Shown here one piece after another: positions 3,530 through 22,642 of a DNA stretch of 64,000 bases. This DNA comes from an uncultured bacterium (GTDB lineage Bacteria; Auribacterota; UBA3054; JAPLST01): contig CAYNJC010000017.1 of NCBI GenBank assembly GCA_964397565.1, positions 15,753 through 79,752 on the forward strand, written 5' to 3'. Position 1 is the first letter of the stretch; every line of letters starts with the position of its first letter. The notes beneath the pieces were generated by a model. That model made no database searches, was not told the DNA's origin, and was given only the letters and a program-made list of their open reading frames with translations. The translations under genes and the position numbers were made by a program.

Positions 3530-4528
3530 TCACCCGCGCGGGGCGGCAACGAAGGCCGGGAAGATATCCGCGTCCAGCGTGCTGGCGCCGCGCGCGCCAT
3601 ACACTTGCCAGCCGCGATAGGCAATCATGCGTGCGTTGTCGGTGCAGAGCGCAAAAGATGGCAGCAGCACGCGCACGCCCTGCCGTGCGCCCTCGGCGAG
3701 AAAGTGTTCACGCAGGCGCGTGTTGGCGGTGACGCCGCCGCCCAGCACGACGGTCGCGCGCCGAAAATGGCGGGCGGCACGCAGCGTTTTCCGCACCAGC
3801 ACGTCAACGATGGCCTCCTGGTACGCAGCGGCGACGTCCGGCAGGTGGGCTTCCGGATGGTCGCGCCGGAAATAGACCAAGGCGGTCTTCAACCCGGAGA
3901 AACTGAAATCCCAACTCTGATCATGCAGCATCGCGCGCGGAAAGGCATACGCGCGGGGATTGCCGCCGCGGGCCAGCTCTTGGAGGGCCTGCCCGCCCGG
4001 ATATCCCAAGCCGAGGAGCTTTGCGCCTTTATCGAACGCCTCGCCGGCGGCGTCATCGCGCGTGCGGCCCAAAACCGTGTACTGCAACGCGTCGTGAATA
4101 TCCACCAGCAGCGTATGCCCGCCGGAGACGACCAGCGCCAAAAACGGCGTATGCACCTCTGCTTCCGCACCGGCAGCATACATGTGCGCCTCGATGTGAT
4201 TCACGGCGACGAACGGCACGGCCAGCCCGGCCGCCAGCGCCTTGCCGTAACTCAGCCCGACGATCAAGGCGCCCGCCAAGCCCGGACCGGCAGTCGCGGC
4301 GACATGGGTGATCGCAGCCAAGGCAATGCCCGCGTCGGCGCAGACGGCGTGGGTCAGCGGTGAAATGGTTTCGAGATGGCAGCGACTGGCCAGTTCCGGC
4401 ACCACGCCGCCATAGGGCGCATGCACGGCAAGTTGGCGCGCAACACGCTCGAAAAAGCGGCCGGATTCGGGATGATACAGCGCAGCGGCCGTCTCGTCAC
4501 ACGAGCTTTCAAGGCCGAGCACCCACAT
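3530..4528 (-). CDS. tsaD: tRNA N6-adenosine threonylcarbamoyltransferase (Kae1/Gcp family)
   Basis: MWVLGLESSCDETAAAL..., GLSYGKALA, VNHIEAHMY, VVSGGHTLL: canonical TsaD blocks over the full 332 aa. Confidence 0.9.
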   Translation of the reverse strand: MWVLGLESSCDETAAALYHPESGRFFERVARQLAVHAPYGGVVPELASRCHLETISPLTHAVCADAGIALAAITHVAATAGPGLAGALIVGLSYGKALAAGLAVPFVAVNHIEAHMYAAGAEAEVHTPFLALVVSGGHTLLVDIHDALQYTVLGRTRDDAAGEAFDKGAKLLGLGYPGGQALQELARGGNPRAYAFPRAMLHDQSWDFSFSGLKTALVYFRRDHPEAHLPDVAAAYQEAIVDVLVRKTLRAARHFRRATVVLGGGVTANTRLREHFLAEGARQGVRVLLPSFALCTDNARMIAYRGWQVYGARGASTLDADIFPAFVAAPRG

Positions 4529-4530
4529 GG

Positions 4531-5031
4531 CTAGGGCTTTTGCGCCGCAGGCGGGGCGGATGTGGTCGTGGGGCCGGGCGCGGCCTCGAGTGGGGTGGTG
4601 GCAGCGAGCGCGCGCTGCCGGGCGCGCTCTTGTTGCGGTTGCGCAAACTCGATCCGGTAAATCGGATAATTCTCGTCGAGCTTGAACTCATACCAGCGAA
4701 TGAATTGCATGTCGCTGTCGCTTTCGCCGATCGTCATATAGTAGTCAAACGGATAGGCGGCCTCCTGCTTGAAGAACTTGGTGATCTCCGCCAGCGGTCG
4801 GTCGCCTTTGTCCTTGAAGCGAATGGAACGCTCAACCCAGGTGCGCCCTTTCATGCTGCGCGGCGTGGTGCGGAAGTCAATCACATCCTTGGGCGTATAG
4901 CCGATTTTGTTGAACGACTCATCAATGGATGCTTGCGACACCGTGACGCGCTCGTCAAAGGAGGTGCAGGCGCACAGCCCCAGGCAGATGGTCAACGGCA
5001 GGAGCCGGCTAATCAGTGGATGCATGGTCAT
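4531..5031 (-). CDS. Putative lipoprotein, unknown function
   Basis: The internal start MTMHPLISRLLPLTICLGLCAC gives a signal peptide plus a lipobox-like Cys. Its ATG lies 1 nt after the upstream protease stop. Pro/Ala/Thr-rich tail. Confidence 0.5.
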   Translation of the reverse strand: MTMHPLISRLLPLTICLGLCACTSFDERVTVSQASIDESFNKIGYTPKDVIDFRTTPRSMKGRTWVERSIRFKDKGDRPLAEITKFFKQEAAYPFDYYMTIGESDSDMQFIRWYEFKLDENYPIYRIEFAQPQQERARQRALAATTPLEAAPGPTTTSAPPAAQKP

Positions 5032-5032
5032 C

Positions 5033-6412
5033 TCATGGTGGAGCGTTAGTGACAGCGGGCAGCGCAACCGGCGCGGCGGGCATTTCCATGAAACGCGCAA
5101 GGCCGCCGCTGCCCAGCACGCGCAAAGCGTTGAGAATATCAACGGCGCGTTCCAATTGGGTGTCGCGCGCGGCGCGCAATGCGTCATAGTGCGCGCGCTC
5201 TGCTTTCGTCAGCTGGGCCGGGTCTGCTTTCCGAAAGGCGTTTGACCGTTTCTCAATCAGCTTGATCTCGTCATCCAACGTGAGCTGCACGTCGATATGC
5301 GGGTAAATGCCGGTGCCGTGAATGCAGACGCCCGAGGGTGTATAGTATTTCGCCGTGGTCAGCCGCAACGAGCAGTTGTTGTTGCCGATCGGCAGGACGG
5401 TCTGCACCGAGCCCTTGCCGAACGTTTTGCTGCCGATCACCAGGCCGCGCTGGTTGTCCTTGATCGCGCCGGTCACAATTTCCGAGGCGCTGGCCGAGGC
5501 CCCGTTCACCAGCACGACCAGCGGCATGCGATACTGTGCGCCCGCGCCGCTCGCGCGAAATACTTGCTCGTGACGCAAGACCCGGCTGCGCACCGAGACA
5601 ATCACCGTGTTGCTCTCCAAAAACATGTCCGCCATCTTGATGGCTTCGACCAAGAGACCGCCACCGTTGTTGCGCATGTCCAACACCAGCGCCCACATGC
5701 CTTGCGTGACCAAGCCGTCAATCGCGGTCTGCAGTTCGCTGGCGGTGGTCTTGTCAAAGGCCGTCACGCGCACATAGCCGATGTGATTAGTCGGATCAAT
5801 GATCGCGGCGTCGCGCACGCGTTTGACTTTGATGACCGCGCGCGTCAGGGTGAAGTCTTTGAGCTCGCGCCGCTCCTGCAATCGGCGTTGGATGGTGAGA
5901 CGCATCTCCGTGCCGGGCTTGCCGCGCATGCGTTTGATGGCCTCGTTGATGCTCAGGTTGCGCGCGCTCTCGTCGCCGATCTTGACAATCTGATCGAACG
6001 GCATCAGCCCGGCCTCGGCCGCCGGCGTGCCTTCGATCGGTGCGATCACTGTCAAGTATTCGTCGCGGATGCCCAGTTCAATGCCGATCCCGCCGAATTC
6101 GCCCTCGGTCTCGATTTTCAGTTCCTCGGTTGCTTCCGGCTCCATGAATTCGCTGTGCGGATCCAGCGCGCGCATCAGGCCGTGCAGCGCATTGTACATC
6201 ACATTGGTCGGATTCACCTCATCCACATATTCGCTCTCGACGATCGTCAGGCACGACGCGAATAAATCGAGAAACGGGAACAATTCTTGCGGCGCGGGGG
6301 CGGGGGCGGTGTCAGACGCGCTTGCGGGCGCGGCCGCGCGCACCAGCGTGGCCAGCGCAAGACCAATCAGCCACGCGCGGGTGGCACAGCTGCGGATAGT
6401 CAAGTTCATCAT
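5033..6412 (-). CDS. ctpA: Carboxyl-terminal processing protease (peptidase S41)
   Basis: Signal peptide. PDZ-like block (GGIGIELG...GTPAAEAGL). S41 core (LVLDMRNNGGGLL, VVLVNGASASASEIVTGAIKD, GSKTFGKGSVQ). Confidence 0.85.
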   Translation of the reverse strand: MMNLTIRSCATRAWLIGLALATLVRAAAPASASDTAPAPAPQELFPFLDLFASCLTIVESEYVDEVNPTNVMYNALHGLMRALDPHSEFMEPEATEELKIETEGEFGGIGIELGIRDEYLTVIAPIEGTPAAEAGLMPFDQIVKIGDESARNLSINEAIKRMRGKPGTEMRLTIQRRLQERRELKDFTLTRAVIKVKRVRDAAIIDPTNHIGYVRVTAFDKTTASELQTAIDGLVTQGMWALVLDMRNNGGGLLVEAIKMADMFLESNTVIVSVRSRVLRHEQVFRASGAGAQYRMPLVVLVNGASASASEIVTGAIKDNQRGLVIGSKTFGKGSVQTVLPIGNNNCSLRLTTAKYYTPSGVCIHGTGIYPHIDVQLTLDDEIKLIEKRSNAFRKADPAQLTKAERAHYDALRAARDTQLERAVDILNALRVLGSGGLARFMEMPAAPVALPAVTNAPP

Positions 6413-6651
6413 CCAGTGCTCCTTTAAAGGAAAAGTATAGCAAGCTGGCCGGCGCGCGTCAAACGCCCCTTAATACTCTGCACTTTCGCTACAAGGTAAA
6501 GGCGTTGGTGAGAGAAGTCCGGCCGCTGCGGTTGCAGAGTCCGGCCGTCCCGCTTCGTCACCCTGCTGCCGCAGGCGACCCCGCGCCCTTGCAGCGTGGG
6601 TGAAGAAGATTGACCACCGCAAGAGCGGAATTGTGAATATCTGCCCAGTGT

Positions 6652-6680
6652 TTGGCTTTTCAACCCCGTTTTGCTACAAT
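6652..6680 (+). promoter_or_regulatory. Putative sigma70-type promoter of panB (TTGGCT-17-TGcTACAAT)
   Basis: TTGGCT at 6652-6657, 17-nt spacer, extended -10 TGcTACAAT ending at 6680, about 37 nt before the panB ATG. Confidence 0.4.
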
Positions 6681-6716
6681 ACCTTATGCTAATCATGGTC
6701 AAAACGACGTGAGGAA

Positions 6717-7538
6717 ATGATGCAACAAGTGTCATCATCCGTGGCGGCGGCGCGTGGGCTTGCCGCGTTGCGCGCCAAGAAACAGCAGCGTGAGCGGATT
6801 GTCGCGCTAACGGCCTACGATTGGCTGACGGCCTCGTGGCTGGCGCAATGCCCGGTGGATTTCCTGCTGGTGGGCGATTCGCTCGCGAATGTCGTTGCCG
6901 GCCATCAGACGACCTTGCCGGTAACGATGGACGAGATGGTCTATCACACCCGCATGGTTGTGCGTGGCGCCGGTGTGGTGCCGGTGATTGCCGACCTGCC
7001 GTTCCTCTCGTACGAAGTGACGCCCGAGGCGGCCGTGCTCAATGCCGGCCGGCTGGTGAAGGAGGCTGGCGCGAGCGGTGTCAAACTCGAGGGTGGCGCG
7101 GATATGGCGCCGACGATCGAACGGATTGTGCGCGCCCACATTCCCGTCCTCGGCCACATTGGCCTGACGCCGCAATCTGTGCTCGAACTGGGCGGCTTCA
7201 AAGTGCAGGGCACACACGACAGCGACGCCGAGCGCCTGCGCGCGCATGCCCGGGCGGTGCAGGAGGCGGGTGCTTTCGCCCTCGTGCTCGAATGCATTCC
7301 GGGCGTGCTGGCCGCGGCGATCACGGCTGATGTGGCGATTCCGACGATCGGGATTGGCGCCGGGCCCGACTGCGATGGGCAGATTCTGGTCACGCAGGAT
7401 CTGCTGGGCTGGTTTGACCAACCCAAGAAATTTGTGAAACAGTATGCGCACTGTCGTCAGACCGCAACGGCGGCCGTCACCGCCTTTGCGGCGGATGTGC
7501 GCGCCGGGCGGTTCCCCGACGCCGACCACACCTTTTAA
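6717..7538 (+). CDS. panB: 3-methyl-2-oxobutanoate hydroxymethyltransferase
   Basis: ALTAYDWLTA...LLVGDSLANVVAGHQTTLPVTMDEMVYHT...VKLEGG...PVLGHIGLTPQS: canonical PanB. Confidence 0.9.
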   Translation: MMQQVSSSVAAARGLAALRAKKQQRERIVALTAYDWLTASWLAQCPVDFLLVGDSLANVVAGHQTTLPVTMDEMVYHTRMVVRGAGVVPVIADLPFLSYEVTPEAAVLNAGRLVKEAGASGVKLEGGADMAPTIERIVRAHIPVLGHIGLTPQSVLELGGFKVQGTHDSDAERLRAHARAVQEAGAFALVLECIPGVLAAAITADVAIPTIGIGAGPDCDGQILVTQDLLGWFDQPKKFVKQYAHCRQTATAAVTAFAADVRAGRFPDADHTF

Positions 7539-12999: not shown

Positions 13000-13404
13000 A
13001 TGCCAGGACACACACCCATAGATGATCTCTGCGAGCACATTATCGGCGCGTGCATCGAAGTGCACAAGCACCTCGGTCCCGGATTGCTAGAAACAGTGTA
13101 TCATGAAGCCCTGAAAGTGGAGTTTGACTTGCGCAAGCTGGGCTACATCCACGAGTATCCTATTGAAGGATCTTTCAAAGGTGTGCCGCTGGGCACCGTA
13201 TACCGCTGCGATTTCTTGATTGCCGAACAAGTGCTTCTGGAAGTCAAGTCAATCGAGCAATTGAAAGCGATTCATGTGGCGATCGCCATCAACTATGCAA
13301 CCCTTGCGAAAAAGCCAACATGTCTGCTGATTAATTTCATGGAATTGAAATTAGTGCAAGGCATCAAACGTGTTTTTCCGTCAAGATCATTTGACGCTCT
13401 ATAG
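13000..13404 (+). CDS. GxxExxY family protein (PD-(D/E)XK fold)
   Basis: IIGACIEVHKHLGPGLLETVYHEAL (GxxExxY), then YRCDFLIAEQVLLEVKS (D...ExK). Visibly AT-richer than gatA and gatB, between which it sits. Confidence 0.8.
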   Translation: MPGHTPIDDLCEHIIGACIEVHKHLGPGLLETVYHEALKVEFDLRKLGYIHEYPIEGSFKGVPLGTVYRCDFLIAEQVLLEVKSIEQLKAIHVAIAINYATLAKKPTCLLINFMELKLVQGIKRVFPSRSFDAL

Positions 13405-17791: not shown

Positions 17792-17981
17792 CCTGGATGC
17801 TGCCGCACCTCAGATACTATGGCCACGAATGGCTGCAAGTAACATTGAACATCGAACAGTAGGCGCAGCACCACCGTCGTGCGGCCCTTGGCCGCTTTAT
17901 AATTATCGCGCCGCGCGAGAATTTAGAAGACACGAACAAATCGCAGCACTGCATCCTTATTTGTTTTGCTGCCAAAATAAT

Positions 17982-18136
17982 TACTAATGAATGCGCTTAC
18001 TAGGTGTCATGCCAATTGTGGCCGCGGGCGCCTGCTTGGAGTCCCGCCAACGGCGCGGATGACCGCGGCTGCAGAAGCCGCCCTCACCGCGGGCGGCTAC
18101 AAGGACGCTGCAAAGTAGAAAGCGCATTCATTAGTA
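17982..18136. mobile_element. MITE-like element, copy A (155 bp, 16-bp perfect terminal inverted repeats)
   Basis: Starts tactaatgaatgcgct and ends agcgcattcattagta. Internal GC-rich hairpins (gccgccc..gggcggc). Same as 32155-32281 except for a 28-bp internal insertion. Confidence 0.7.
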
Positions 18137-18299
18137 ACGAAGAAATCGCAGAATCAGGCATTGTCTATTGTGCAGTCGCAGCATGCCGCACTTTGACAAC
18201 CAACAACCTGATTGCTGCTGCTGTTTTGTGTCTTGGCTGGCGTCTGCTAGTCCCGCCCTGTGGCGTGGATGTCTTGGGGGTTAATGCTGTTCTCGCTGC

Positions 18300-18329
18300 A
18301 TTGACTTTCCCCCTGCCTGTGTGCTATAC
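18300..18329 (+). promoter_or_regulatory. Putative promoter TTGACT-18-TGcTATACT
   Basis: TTGACT at 18300-18305, TATACT at 18324-18329 preceded by TG. Lies about 68 nt upstream of the 18397 ORF. Confidence 0.45.
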
Positions 18330-18396
18330 TCTCCCGTTCCGTAGCAGGTGCCTACCGACATTGGCATAATCGAACCTTCTCACACCGATCACAACC

Positions 18397-18711
18397 ATGC
18401 GGCCCGACAGCCCGGCACTTCACGCGCCCTCGTGCGACACGTTCCGCGCCGAACTCGACCGGCTGGTCGAACTGTTCAACCGCAATCTCAGCCTCCACAA
18501 GAGTCCCTCGTACAGCGAAGCACGCCTGCGCATGGACTTCCTCGACCCGTTCTTCCGCGCCCTTGGCTGGGACGTCGAAAACAAAGCCGGGCTGATCCCG
18601 CAGCACCGCGAAGTCGAAATCGAAAGCCGCACCCAGGTCGGCAGCCGCCAGAAACGCGCCGATTACCTCTTCCGCACTAAGAGCAATGAACTAACAGGAG
18701 AAACCCAATGA
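18397..18711 (+). pseudogene. N-terminal remnant of a type IIG restriction-modification / PglX-like enzyme
   Basis: ELDRLVELFNRNLSLHKSPSYSEARLRMDFLDPFFRALGWDVENK...RADYLFR is the typical N-terminal module of Eco57I/PglX-type enzymes. The frame then runs into unrelated AT-rich sequence and stops after 104 aa. Confidence 0.6.
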
Positions 18712-19448
18712 CAAGTACCGGCAAGGTTATCCAAGAGGCAATCAGACTTGTGACGGAAACGCCACCTGGTGTCCGGTACAGTGTCCTTCATAAGATGATA
18801 CTCGCAAAATACCCCGACATCCCGTCGAACACAATTCACGGTTCGCTACACAAATTCCGCACTCATTTGCCTGCTGACATCTACTTGCCTTCAAAGGGGC
18901 TCTACAAACACACGAGATTCAAGGACCCGAGGGAGCTTCTTCCGGAAACATCCCCGAGCATCAAACCGGCAACGAAGATGGACGAAGAGCATTTCTACGG
19001 GCAATTCGCACAATGGATTGTCAATGAGTTGGAGGAATGCACAAAGGCAATTCCACTCGGCGGCAACAAGTTCAAGGACAAATGGGGAACACCTGACGTG
19101 ATTGGAATACGTGAACCTCGGAAGAGTGACATCATCAAGCCGCCTACGGAGATCATCGCTGCGGAAATCAAGACTGACTCGCAGGCACTGATTGTCGCCT
19201 TCGGCCAAGCTTGTGCGTACAAACTGTTTTCTCACCGTTCATATATTGTAGTGCCGGATGAGTCATCCGACGAGGACATCGCACGGTTAGACGCCTTGGC
19301 CCGCATATTCGGTATCGGACTGATTCTCTTCGACAAGCAAGAGAAGGAACCAGAATTCGAGATCCGCGTGAGGGCATCAAGACATGAACCAGATATGTTC
19401 TATATCAACAAGTACCTAAAGCTAATCGAGGACGATCTGTTTACATGA
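18708..19448 (+). CDS. Winged-helix-like N-terminal domain + PD-(D/E)XK nuclease-fold protein (Mrr-like architecture), function unknown
   Basis: Own RBS (aggag 8 nt upstream). N-terminal ~70 aa HTH-like (VIQEAIRLV...VRYSVLHKMILAKYPDIPSNTIHGSLHKF). Core WGTPDVIGI...EIIAAEIKTD...QACAYK = D...ExK...Q motif order. Visibly lower GC than the flanks. Confidence 0.5.
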   Translation: MTSTGKVIQEAIRLVTETPPGVRYSVLHKMILAKYPDIPSNTIHGSLHKFRTHLPADIYLPSKGLYKHTRFKDPRELLPETSPSIKPATKMDEEHFYGQFAQWIVNELEECTKAIPLGGNKFKDKWGTPDVIGIREPRKSDIIKPPTEIIAAEIKTDSQALIVAFGQACAYKLFSHRSYIVVPDESSDEDIARLDALARIFGIGLILFDKQEKEPEFEIRVRASRHEPDMFYINKYLKLIEDDLFT

Positions 19449-19464
19449 ACAATGGAACACTGCC

Positions 19465-19545
19465 ACCGACCAGCAAATCGACGCCCTGGTCTACGCACTC
19501 TACGGGCTGGCGCCGGAAGAGATTGAATTGGTGGAGAAAAACTAA
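19465..19545 (+). pseudogene. C-terminal remnant of the same type IIG R-M / PglX-like enzyme
   Basis: Translates to TDQQIDALVYALYGLAPEEIELVEKN-stop, the characteristic C-terminal tail (..VY.LYGLT.EEI..VE) of these methyltransferase-endonucleases. No start codon or upstream domain in frame. Confidence 0.55.
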
Positions 19546-19599: not shown

Positions 19600-20106
19600 A
19601 TGGACATATTCATTCTTATACCGAAATACTTCTGGTTGATTGCTATCCTTGTGACGAGCATCAATTGCATGATGTTTCGAATAAGAGCAAAAAAGCACAT
19701 TGCCGCGAAGCCAGAGCTCAAAGATGGATATGCAACTTTGTTGCGCGGCTACCTGTTTTGGATGAATCTGCCTTGGGTTGTCATGGGCATTGGCTGCACT
19801 GTTGGGCGCGTTCCTTCCGTGTGGTACTATTTCAGGCCACGCGACGGGAATCCTTATGTACTAGCATGGTTTGCATCCATTGTATTGCTTTGGGTGCTCG
19901 GTACGTTCTGGCTCTTTTTCCGCGGTGGTGCAGAAACGTTGGTTCGGTATCCTGGTGTACTGCAAGCCGGCGGTGGGCTTAAGAGTAGGAACATAGCGAG
20001 CCCTGTCCTCTTCAAGGTCATTTGGTTGTTGGCTCTTACCGGTGGCGTAATCGCCATGGTGACAATGTGGATCTTGGACATTCCCATCCAACATTTCGCA
20101 CAATGA
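19600..20106 (+). CDS. Integral membrane protein (about 4 TM), unknown function
   Basis: RBS gaggtgg upstream. Hydrophobic spans FWLIAILVTSINCMMF, LFWMNLPWVVMGIGCTV, VLAWFASIVLLWVLGTFWLFF, VIWLLALTGGVIAMVTMWIL. AT-richer than the backbone. Confidence 0.5.
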   Translation: MDIFILIPKYFWLIAILVTSINCMMFRIRAKKHIAAKPELKDGYATLLRGYLFWMNLPWVVMGIGCTVGRVPSVWYYFRPRDGNPYVLAWFASIVLLWVLGTFWLFFRGGAETLVRYPGVLQAGGGLKSRNIASPVLFKVIWLLALTGGVIAMVTMWILDIPIQHFAQ

Positions 20107-20258
20107 CGGCCACCGAGCGGGTATGCATTGTCCGTTGACATTTCGGGGGATGATACTCCAAGGCACAATCATTGGTCAACAAGGTGGTCACCAGATCGCA
20201 CGGGCAGGCGCGCAGGGTGGAAGATTAGCGGCAACAGGTCTCGCAAGAAGTCAACCTA

Positions 20259-20666
20259 ATGCATAACAGAATGCGTACAGAAACACTATTCTTGATTGCA
20301 GTGACAATCCTGTTCTTGCAGTCATGCAGTGACGTGGACTACTATCAGGCATTGTTGCAGAGACATGGCTGCATACCAACGGGCGGTACGGTCAGAGTTG
20401 TCTATGATGCTGACATGCACTTGGCGGGCGGTAGAATCCTTTTGGGCATTTCCGGGATGACGCGTTCGCATTGGGAATGGCTTGTCACCAATAGCGAATC
20501 AGCGGCAGGGCCATCACCAAGCCTGATTGGCATGCTTAGAAAGGCCAGCGTGCCTGCACCACAGACTAATGTGGTTGTCCTTTATAGAGATCTGGAGAAC
20601 GGCGGCGGCGCTGAATTGTACCATGCATCGCCCACCGTGACATACATTGAGGTAATTTCGTTCTGA
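20259..20666 (+). CDS. Putative lipoprotein, unknown function
   Basis: TLFLIAVTILFLQSCSD signal plus lipobox. No recognisable domain. Confidence 0.4.
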   Translation: MHNRMRTETLFLIAVTILFLQSCSDVDYYQALLQRHGCIPTGGTVRVVYDADMHLAGGRILLGISGMTRSHWEWLVTNSESAAGPSPSLIGMLRKASVPAPQTNVVVLYRDLENGGGAELYHASPTVTYIEVISF

Positions 20667-20667
20667 A

Positions 20668-20726
20668 GTACCTATGGGGTCAGGCGTTAAAAGGTAACAC
20701 TTCACGTTGACTTCCAGCGGGCATTC
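20668..20726 (+). repeat. Solo copy of the REP-like hairpin repeat associated with the RayT-like transposase
   Basis: agtacctatggggtcaggcgttaaaaggtaacacttcacgttgacttccagcgggcattc is near-identical to 21211-21281. Confidence 0.8.
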
Positions 20727-20916: not shown

Positions 20917-21261
20917 GCGTGCGCGGAAGAGAATATGAGCAGCGATTATCCGCAGATCACGCAGATGTCGCAGATCGAACACGGACTTTGATTGCCGTCG
21001 TTTGTTTGATTAGAGCGCAGATCGCCAGCTGAACTGGCTCCCACTCTGCCAGGACTTGGATCGCCGTCATTTGTTTCTTTGTTTTCCAAACACTATCTGC
21101 GCAATCGGCGTCATCTGCGCATAGATCTGTTCCGCCGGAGCGACCTCCGGCGCCTGCAGCACGCTTGGCGCTTCTTCGTGCCTTGGCTGGCGTCTGCTAG
21201 TCCCGCCATGAGTACCTATGGGCTACCTATGGGGTCAGGCGTTAAAAGGTAACACTTCACG

Positions 21262-21296: not shown

Positions 21297-22292
21297 ATGG
21301 CAAGGCCCTTGCGCATAGAAGGAGCAGGCCTCTGGTACCATGTGCTGTGTCGTGGCAACGGTGGCCAGTGCGTGTTTACCGGCGCGAAAGACTACCAAGG
21401 ATTCCTCGCGCGGCTTGGCACTGTCGCCCTCGCCTTCCACGTTGAAATCCATGCGTACGCGTTGATGACCAACCACCTGCATCTATTCGTGCGAACCCGT
21501 GCGGCAAACCTGAGCAGGTTCATGCAGCGGTTGTTGTCCGGCTACACGCAATGGTTCAACGTCAGGCACGAGACATACGGCCACCTGTTCCAAGGTCGCT
21601 ACAAGGCGCTTCTGGTTGACAAGAATGCCTATGGGGCATCCGTGAGCCGCTACATTCATTTGAATCCAGTGCGGATCGCGGACACAGGCAAACTGACGGT
21701 GGCGCAACGGCAAGCAGCATTACGGGACTACCGCTGGAGCAGTTACCGGGCAATAATCGGATTGGCCAAAGCGGAAGAGTGGCTGGCAACAGACGCTACA
21801 TTGTCGCGCTGGGGCTCTGGATGGCAGCAGCAGCAGAACGGATATGCGAAGTTTGTGGAAGAGGGGCTGATCAAGGATGTAAAGGATCCCGCCGAGGAGG
21901 CAAAGGCGCAGAGCATCTTGGGACACGACCGGTTCGTGGATCGGCTACGGCGGATACTGCGGCAACGCGGAAAGATAGATCGTGAGAGCGAACGAGCCCG
22001 TCGCCAACTGACAGCGGAAAGCGTTGAGACGGTGGTGAAGCGCGTGGCGCAGGCATACCGTGTGAGCCCAGAGGAAGTGAAGAAGACACGGATGGGCCAG
22101 CGTGGCAACGAGGCGCGGCAAGTGGCCATGTGGCTGGCACGCGAGCGGTGCGCTGCGCTGGCGACCGTGCGGGACATCGGCAAGGCGCTGGGCGGGGTGA
22201 GCGGATCAGCGGTGGTGGTGGCGCACCGGCGTTTGAGCCAGATGATGAAGCGCAACAAAAGACTGCAACGAATAGCGAATCGGCTAGTATGA
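21297..22292 (+). CDS. REP-associated tyrosine transposase-like (IS200/RayT Y1 family) with C-terminal DnaA-domain-IV-like HTH
   Basis: WYHVLCRGN..., HUH motif in YALMTNHLHLFVRT, catalytic-Tyr context GHLFQGRYKALLV, YIHLNPVR. C-terminus VAQAYRVSPEEVKK...GNEARQVAMWLARE...IGKALGG.SGSAV resembles the DnaA C-terminal HTH. Confidence 0.75.
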   Translation: MARPLRIEGAGLWYHVLCRGNGGQCVFTGAKDYQGFLARLGTVALAFHVEIHAYALMTNHLHLFVRTRAANLSRFMQRLLSGYTQWFNVRHETYGHLFQGRYKALLVDKNAYGASVSRYIHLNPVRIADTGKLTVAQRQAALRDYRWSSYRAIIGLAKAEEWLATDATLSRWGSGWQQQQNGYAKFVEEGLIKDVKDPAEEAKAQSILGHDRFVDRLRRILRQRGKIDRESERARRQLTAESVETVVKRVAQAYRVSPEEVKKTRMGQRGNEARQVAMWLARERCAALATVRDIGKALGGVSGSAVVVAHRRLSQMMKRNKRLQRIANRLV

Positions 22293-22642
22293 AGTGTCAC
22301 CTTTTAACGCCTGACCCCATTCTGTCTTTGGCGACGTCAGAAGGGCGGCCGCCACGTTTGTTGGCCTCTACAACCGCTCGAAAAACCGGGTTCAAGAGCC
22401 CATTGCAATTCAGGGATGAATATGCCATAATGGCAGCAGCGTAGTTACAATAAAATCGTGTCCGGGAAACCGGTGGCGCTACAACAAGCCGGCCACGCTT
22501 CCGCTGGCCTCGAGGGAGGGCATGTTGGCCTTCCCGTTCTTTTTCAGGAACGGTTAGCCTACGCGTTTTACCGACGCGGACAACATGCGATTCAGGAGCG
22601 GGGACAAGGGCGAAAAGGCACTGGCGGGAACAACTAATTAAC

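Follow-up and report, generated by a model that had tools for sequence, protein, structure and literature searches.

We analyzed a 64,000-nucleotide (nt) stretch of DNA from an uncultured bacterium of the Auribacterota (forward strand of contig CAYNJC010000017.1; hereafter, the window), in which a gene encoding a protein of 246 amino acids (aa) is located between the two severed ends of a Type IIG restriction-modification (RM) gene. All features of the locus are on the forward strand. A 5' remnant comprising codons 1-94 of the Type IIG gene occupies positions 18397-18678 and a 3' remnant comprising its last 28 codons plus the stop (TATDQQIDALVYALYGLAPEEIELVEKN*) occupies positions 19459-19545. 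Between them, a foreign segment of 780 nt (18679-19458) stands in place of 2779 nt of the Type IIG interior and contains an AGGAG ribosome-binding site (18696-18700), the 246-codon open reading frame (ORF; 18708-19448), which encodes a predicted winged helix followed by a predicted PD-(D/E)XK nuclease domain, and little else. The ORF that begins with the 5' remnant (18397-18711) specifies 104 aa, consisting of the 94 Type IIG codons followed by 10 insert-derived codons, and remains open until a TGA (18709-18711) that overlaps the ATG of the 246-aa ORF (ATGA). No start codon occurs in the frame of the C-terminal tail, which opens at 19432. A consensus scan also placed a putative sigma-70-type promoter (TTGACT, an 18-nt spacer, and TG-TATACT) upstream at 18301-18330. 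The ribosome-binding site, the overlapping stop and start codons, and the lower GC content that a preliminary description of the window had ascribed to the 246-aa ORF are all present in the sequence, with 49% GC in the ORF.

Both ends of the locus belong to one Type IIG gene

Residues 18-97 of the N-terminal fragment match positions 8-89 of the 1011-position PADLOC model REase_MTase_IIG (PDLC03604; E=2.3e-18), and a match to Pfam HSDR_N was slightly under threshold. Of the N-terminal PD-(D/E)XK/HSDR_N nuclease domain, the fragment retains the first half, through the 'D' motif RADYLFRT, immediately after which the Type IIG homology ends (18677/18678). Relatives continue past this motif with ...RFVCEAKKP, which carries the ExK, and it is this ExK half of the domain that the remnant lacks. 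On the right, the homology begins at 19459 (TATDQQ...) and extends through the stop codon at 19545. The tail matches the final 25 positions of three PADLOC Type IIG models (E ~3e-4) as well as the C-termini of four individual proteins (P0211, P0219, P0225, and P0369), and it agrees with the best full-length matches, the C-termini of which read ...TATDQQIDALVYELYGLT.EEI..VE...

One intact relative, P0369, is a protein of 1063 aa that shares a 90% identity cluster with the N-terminal fragment. It is encoded on the contig L133 (positions 4239-7430), contains the Pfam domains N6_Mtase, MmeI_Mtase, and Eco57I, and covers positions 8-1002 of the 1011 in PDLC03604 (E=3e-183). By blastn, positions 18384-18677 of the window align with 4271-4564 of L133 at 83% identity and positions 19459-19535 align with 7344-7420 at 82% identity, which leaves L133 4565-7343 (2779 nt, ~926 codons) with no counterpart in the window. 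The lost part encodes the ExK half of the nuclease motif, a helical domain, the N6-adenine methyltransferase (NPPY), and the target-recognition domain. As a functional Type IIG enzyme the locus falls short, its nuclease domain being incomplete and its methyltransferase and target-recognition domain being absent, whereas its descent from a Type IIG gene is apparent from the homology of both termini to the two ends of one gene. Comparison at the sequence level confirms that the locus holds the remains of an MmeI-like, single-polypeptide Type IIG RM gene of ~1060 codons.

This result upholds much of the preliminary description, which had recognized an N-terminal module reaching to ~18678 and had noted that enzymes of this class are typically ~1000 aa or more, such that the core must be missing. 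Relatives are indeed 980-1063 aa. The proposed C-terminal tail likewise proved to be significant and to come from the same gene as the N-terminal fragment, except that the homology begins at 19459 rather than at 19465. The gene had been described as Type IIG/PglX-like, and of the two identities the MmeI-like Type IIG one stands. BREX PglX was rejected, as P0369 scores E=1.6e-36 on the PglX model versus 3e-183 on the Type IIG model, and BREX-type Pfam domains were found in none of the genes predicted near the locus on the source contig.

We also considered whether the 104-aa N-terminal fragment might be a native, functional small protein, in which case the match of the C-terminal tail would be due to chance. 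The ORF of the fragment is intact in the window, and a word-indexed homolog search with the fragment yielded proteins of 70-182 aa only. Upon alignment, these short matches were found to be heterogeneous, as they stop at differing points, have unrelated tails, or are cut by contig ends. An exhaustive HMMER search with the same query identified 2410 relatives, many of them 980-1061 aa, in which the homology always ends at query residues 94-98; the word-indexed search appears to favor short targets. For these reasons the small-protein reading of the short matches was dropped. Among 32 metagenomic loci of close Type IIG relatives, most contain the full gene of ~3 kb and a few contain internal deletions (L120 and L108). 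Full-length proteins are thus the norm, including the intact P0369 from the same 90% cluster, and the fragment, missing the ExK half of the nuclease motif, is frameshifted in a second copy of the locus (L093, described below) and is accompanied by a tail with 82% nucleotide identity to the same gene. A native small protein is almost certainly the wrong explanation.

Other decayed copies indicate that this Type IIG subfamily is often pseudogenised. In L120 (1155-1860), Type IIG residues 5-110 are joined to residues 901-1030 by a plain internal deletion, and L108 (218-1962) is a decayed copy of the same subfamily that also has a plain internal deletion. P0131 runs from the N-terminal region straight into the final 13 residues of the C-terminal tail, and P0146 is a decayed copy fused to an HsdS-like C-terminus. 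We found no intact syntenic allele 3' of the 767-aa gene that lies upstream of the locus, as the other contigs that contain this gene either end within ~220 nt or are equal to the window.

The inserted segment and its junctions

The GC content of the insert is 48.9% (58% at third codon positions, GC3), as compared to 64.4% (GC3 83%) in the N-terminal remnant and 59.7% in the window as a whole, which marks the insert as compositionally foreign. The low GC content extends downstream to ~20.8 kb, across the next two small ORFs. At both junctions we observed a (C)ACT of 3-4 nt and no longer repeats, and the locus has no transposon ends, terminal repeats, target-site duplication, or conserved flanks. 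The shared 3-4 nt are too short for interpretation and are consistent with illegitimate recombination. A 7-nt repeat (ACCGACC) near both breakpoints of the intact gene was considered as the substrate of a microhomology deletion and was rejected, since the window still has the 6 nt (ACTGCC) that precede the right-hand copy, which puts the breakpoints outside the repeat. A 41-nt repeat (core CTTGGCTGGCGTCTGCTAGTCCCGCC) at 18220-18260 and 21170-21210 brackets a 2.95-kb segment containing the whole locus and is found at L133 1905-1955 as well. We rejected these repeats as element ends, since the presence of the sequence elsewhere on L133 identifies it as a dispersed, lineage-specific repeat. An ancestor of this lineage lost 2779 nt of the Type IIG interior and received the 780-nt foreign segment in its place, probably joined by illegitimate recombination or double-strand-break repair during horizontal acquisition.

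The promoter of the Type IIG gene was left in place. Upstream of the remnant in the window and of the intact gene on L133, the regions align and the promoter hexamers are in register (TTGACT-18-TATACT and TTGACA-18-TATAAT, respectively), which indicates that the promoter was inherited from the Type IIG gene. A promoter-like site had been proposed at 18300-18329; the inherited site is at 18301-18330. From this arrangement, we infer that transcription of the 246-aa gene now starts at the old Type IIG promoter. Its translation would be coupled to that of the 104-codon leader via the ATGA overlap and aided by its own AGGAG.

The replacement is real, old, and followed by purifying selection

Twelve contigs from JGI, ENA, and Logan assemblies encode the identical 104-aa product across the left junction, and in each of them the 246-aa gene follows. 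The presence of the left junction on 12 independent contigs rules out an assembly artifact. A separate, short, and diverged contig (L093) shares the left junction (...TTCCGCACTAAG...) and the C-terminal tail, beyond which its sequence is unlike that of the window, and its 246-aa protein is 94% identical to the one encoded in the window. As both lineages have the same arrangement, the replacement predates their split, and the two represent one ancestral event with no recurrence. Between the window and L093, the 246-aa ORF has a synonymous divergence (dS) of 0.24 and a ratio of nonsynonymous to synonymous divergence (dN/dS) of 0.11. Amino acid changes affect 5 of 28 positions in the C-terminal tail and 15 of 246 in the ORF (Fisher p=0.04), and the N-terminal remnant of L093 has suffered a further, frameshifting deletion of ~40 nt. 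To judge from these substitutions and deletions, the inserted gene has been kept by purifying selection since the replacement while the remnants on either side decayed.

The 246-aa protein is predicted to combine a winged helix with a PD-(D/E)XK nuclease domain

An N-terminal helix-turn-helix-like domain and a D...ExK...Q nuclease motif had been noted in the 246-aa protein, and structure prediction agreed with both. With an alignment of 93 sequences, AlphaFold2 produced a model with a mean predicted local distance difference test score (pLDDT) of 79.7 (a single-sequence model had a pLDDT of 42 and was discarded). In this model, residues 1-70 form a winged helix (three helices and a hairpin), residues 77-89 form a disordered linker, and residues 93-246 form a nuclease domain with the order alpha-beta-beta-beta-alpha-beta-alpha-beta-beta-alpha. 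The core helices (H) and strands (E) are H93-106, E113-116, E131-135, E148-154, H161-171, and E177-183. Residues E110, D130, E153, K155, and Q167 are invariant in all 93 sequences, D130 opens strand 2, and E153-x-K155 is in strand 3. The order of the core together with these invariant residues constitutes a PD-(D/E)XK signature. Judged by the model, the 246-aa protein has the fold of the PD-(D/E)XK superfamily and is a predicted nuclease.

A Foldseek search of BFVD returned 13 matches at E<=1e-3, with proteins annotated as MmcB-like first (E=2e-6 to 1e-4). Against the PDB, the list was led by PaqCI (a Type IIS enzyme, E=1.9e-3), AF2093, and BamHI, followed by the winged helices of Fur, Rok, and Rpc34, which correspond to the N-terminal domain; a profile search of PDB sequences with the 246-aa protein gave nothing significant. 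Among the 93 family members, hidden Markov model (HMM) matches that recurred below threshold were to sce7726_fam (20 of 93), DUF7669 (10 of 93), and WH_Rok (7 of 93). On the sce7726 model NF033832, the 246-aa protein scores 13.2 bits (E=0.062; cut-off, 70) and the best of the 93 members reaches E=6.4e-4. The family belongs to none of these three. The protein of the window had no Pfam match to Mrr_N or Mrr_cat at E<=1, and neither domain is among the 25 most often matched of the 33 Pfam families matched across the 93 members. Mentions of sce7726 in the literature are incidental only. As a variation upon the architecture, P0082 (L002 6001-7008) and ~10 other members of 320-342 aa have a tandem N-terminal winged helix, and residues 1-90 of the window protein match such duplicated members twice, at 34% and 57% identity.

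A large and patchily distributed family

A search of a database clustered at 90% identity yielded 3982 homologs of the 246-aa protein at E<=1e-3. The 120 of these that were listed are 57-94% identical, unnamed or 'hypothetical' without exception, and devoid of Pfam domains. A sister subfamily of ~262 aa and 37% identity contributes >2000 further clusters in Proteobacteria, including the cultured Sphingomonas, Achromobacter insolitus, and Bordetella ansorpii. In a set of species representatives (185,579 species genomes), 302 stretches encode homologs at >=52% identity, and their distribution is patchy. Bacterial carriers belong to the Nitrospirota, Acidobacteriota, Planctomycetota, Verrucomicrobiota, Bacteroidota, Chloroflexota, Desulfobacterota, and Firmicutes, and archaeal carriers belong to the Methanophagales, Methanoperedenaceae, Methanosarcinales, Micrarchaeota, and Nanoarchaeota. 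Horizontal transfer across the domains of life is evident. The family was not found in 50,697 GenBank phage records, is on 1 of 72,556 plasmid records, and is present on three IMG/VR contigs.

The genomic contexts of the family share very little. None of ~90 other loci has Type IIG remnants beside the family gene, clustering of 400 neighboring ORFs revealed no conserved partner, and ~85 loci lack conserved neighbors, flanks, terminal repeats, and attC-like sites. When the flanks of 81 loci were anchored on the start and stop codons, the information content was ~0 beyond a purine-rich ribosome-binding site and the stop codon; this purine-rich site, 7-12 nt before the ATG, is the sole flank feature shared across the family. 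The transferred unit is essentially the size of the ORF. Close relatives occur as solo genes, in housekeeping contexts that recur unchanged in many samples, and the Achromobacter copy is solo as well. In five loci (L026, L042, L046, L052, and L053) from bacteria and Methanophagales, a near-palindrome (TTAGGCGAAATCGCTAAAAT.AGGTGATAAT-ATG) precedes the family gene by ~35 nt. The window lacks this sequence, a possible operator through which the winged helix would regulate its own gene.

The only recurrent neighbors of the family are DNA methyltransferases, which were found within 6 kb in ~10 of 89 loci. A Type II methyltransferase (PF01555) is adjacent in five of ~75 loci, from Desulfobacterota, Planctomycetota (two), Elusimicrobiota, and Nanoarchaeota. 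In four of the five, it is upstream on the same strand with a gap of 33-130 nt, forming compact two-gene modules among housekeeping genes. Four further loci have a Type I hsdM within three genes, and in L001 the family gene adjoins a Type I RM system and AbiE. The methyltransferase-linked members are dispersed among solo members in identity space, and the linked methyltransferases are themselves 26-70% identical with differing motif orders (permutation classes). The sister subfamily provides two more examples. In L132 (1724-8894; Novosphingobium pSA1), its gene follows a DrmMI/Type IIG-like methyltransferase and faces Lamassu LmuB, and in L145 (3691-8786; Sphingomonas sp. MMS24-J13) it is last in a four-gene operon with a BcgI-like nuclease-methyltransferase of 677 aa (HSDR_N_2, N6_Mtase, and Eco57I), an HsdS-like protein of 468 aa, and a protein of 274 aa in which an RNALFH (HEPN-like) motif is present. 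By rough estimate, an RM or defense context occurs in one locus per eight to ten, which is approximately tenfold over chance. The 64-kb window itself has no methyltransferase detectable by tblastn.

Other features of the window

Downstream of the C-terminal tail, two low-GC ORFs without family matches (19600-20666) encode proteins of 168 aa (membrane-protein-like) and 135 aa. The 168-aa protein forms a singleton cluster and the sequence past the tail differs in L093, both of which place the remnant in a variable region. Farther downstream, the product of ORF 21297-22292 joins an IS200-like Y1 transposase domain to a DnaA C-terminal helix-turn-helix domain, and the ORF is flanked by 31-nt inverted repeats (21229-21259 and 22290-22320; a third copy is at 20674-20704), an arrangement that resembles a REP/RayT-type unit. 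The interval from the 767-aa gene to the Type IIG promoter contains a 22-nt inverted repeat (17981-18137; 95% complementary, with a 113-nt GC-rich spacer) that is similar to a miniature inverted-repeat transposable element. A 134-aa PDDEXK_3 (PF13366) gene is located at ~13000-13404, between gatA and gatB of the gatCAB operon, and corresponds to L008 1444-1848. Rfam and tRNA scans of the window returned nothing.

Interpretation of the locus

The gutted MmeI-like Type IIG gene hosts a horizontally acquired gene that we consider likely to encode a solitary restriction-type defense nuclease and that would be run from the old promoter. According to the model, the 246-aa product would join a Rok/Mrr_N-like winged-helix DNA binder to an MmcB/sce7726-like PD-(D/E)XK domain with an intact E...D...ExK...Q site. 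It would most likely serve in defense as a solitary restriction-type DNA endonuclease, and in architecture it resembles Type IV enzymes such as Mrr, for which a cognate methylase is not required. This view is based upon the occurrence of the gene on its own, usually without a methylase, the winged helix and intact nuclease site, the horizontal spread of the family, and its enrichment near RM loci. The preliminary description had proposed that a defense gene was replaced by a different nuclease-fold gene, and the remnants, the breakpoints, and the fold model all bear this out. It had left the choice between defense-gene turnover and a selfish or anti-defense insertion; turnover fits best, and the selfish or anti-defense option did not hold up, with Type IIG remnants in none of the ~90 other loci.

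Several observations weigh against a solitary defense nuclease. No PDB fold match was obtained at E<=1e-3, the predicted template modeling score (pTM) of the model was just 0.56, and the 246-aa protein has no above-threshold match in Pfam, NCBIfam, PADLOC, or PHROGs. The low pTM is to be expected, as two domains are joined by a flexible linker. Most members of the family are located among housekeeping genes, outside of defense islands, and the median pairwise identity of 58% across the domains of life is unusually high and atypical for restriction endonucleases. With regard to the event itself, a one-step replacement and a deletion followed by an insertion fit equally. Furthermore, the five operon-like loci with an adjacent methyltransferase, from four phyla, fit a classical Type II enzyme better than one that is independent of methylation. 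In such a case, the 246-aa protein would be a Type II endonuclease with its cognate methyltransferase elsewhere in the genome, and the solo copies would be protected by a distant or orphan methylase. The appearance of PaqCI and BamHI among the PDB fold matches is in agreement with this, and we grant it a small but real chance. However, >90% of the loci have no methyltransferase within 6 kb, as is true for the entire 64-kb window. The linked members are scattered among the solo ones, their methyltransferases are divergent and of different permutation classes, and the partners elsewhere are Type I, BcgI-like, or DrmMI-like. An MmcB-like accessory nuclease of DNA repair or recombination, with no role in defense and only an incidental position within the RM wreck, would account for the best fold matches, which are phage proteins annotated as MmcB-like DNA repair, for the recurrence of the related sce7726 family among the HMM matches, and for the many loci in stable housekeeping neighborhoods. 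We nonetheless regard this as unlikely given the patchy spread of the family (302 stretches among 185,579 species genomes), its transfer across domains, the roughly estimated tenfold enrichment of methyltransferase and RM neighbors, and the additional N-terminal winged helix, which is typical of restriction-type enzymes.

The position of the gene exactly inside a Type IIG gene, both in the window and in L093, could also suggest a selfish or anti-defense element that singles out and disrupts restriction genes, whether of Type IIG or others, much as a homing element would. The mobile unit is about the size of the ORF, and in four loci the gene holds the slot after a Type II methyltransferase in which a restriction gene would be expected. 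On the other hand, the association with Type IIG remnants amounts to a single ancestral event, which leaves an element specific for Type IIG genes unsupported. We found neither a conserved target nor a terminal repeat or target-site duplication of the kind that homing or transposition would leave, the family is absent from the GenBank phage records and nearly so from plasmids, and the other decayed Type IIG copies (L120, L108, and P0131) are plain deletions without the 246-aa gene. A selfish element of this type is very improbable. A more speculative and decidedly unlikely extension of the defense reading is that the family is an ORF-sized, self-sufficient nuclease cassette that preferentially enters the nuclease slot of RM loci, thereby acting as a plug-in or replacement effector that would rewire the RM promoters and methylases already present. 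On this view, it landed within a Type IIG gene in the window, behind orphaned Type II methyltransferases in four phyla, and as the final gene of BcgI-like and DrmMI-like operons in Proteobacteria.

The locus is a clear and unusually clean, yet fairly ordinary, case of defense-gene turnover. It should not surprise a specialist, as the decay and replacement of defense genes are well known. Its value is a nucleotide-resolution view of such turnover, in which a compact foreign nuclease gene takes over the promoter and leader of a gutted RM gene. Within a known superfamily, the predicted nuclease family forms a large new branch that has no annotation. The analysis flags a very large family (3982 plus >2000 clusters in bacteria and archaea) that lacks a Pfam, NCBIfam, or PADLOC model and offers a candidate defense nuclease with cultured hosts (Achromobacter, Bordetella, and Sphingomonas), in which its function is testable.

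Comparison with known systems

The locus resembles an MmeI-like Type IIG gene (PDLC03604) in its first 94 and last 28 codons and differs from one in that ~926 codons are gone, which makes it a pseudogene. The MmcB-like and sce7726 (NF033832) proteins are the best structural matches of the 246-aa protein and its most frequently recurring sub-threshold HMM match, respectively, but the MmcB-like viral matches, at 145-192 residues, are too short to include the N-terminal winged helix and linker of the 246-aa family. Modular Type II enzymes such as SdaI combine a winged helix with a PD-(D/E)XK domain. PaqCI does as well and is the top PDB fold match, although its TM-score is 0.33 and its identity is 17%; most members of the 246-aa family further differ from enzymes of the PaqCI/SdaI type in lacking an adjacent methyltransferase. 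Like the Mrr Type IV enzymes (Mrr_N plus Mrr_cat), the 246-aa protein is predicted to have a winged helix followed by a PD-(D/E)XK domain and is encoded by a single gene, usually without a cognate methylase and often near RM loci. It is distinguished from them by the lack of an Mrr_N or Mrr_cat sequence match and by a nuclease fold that is closer to MmcB/sce7726-like proteins.

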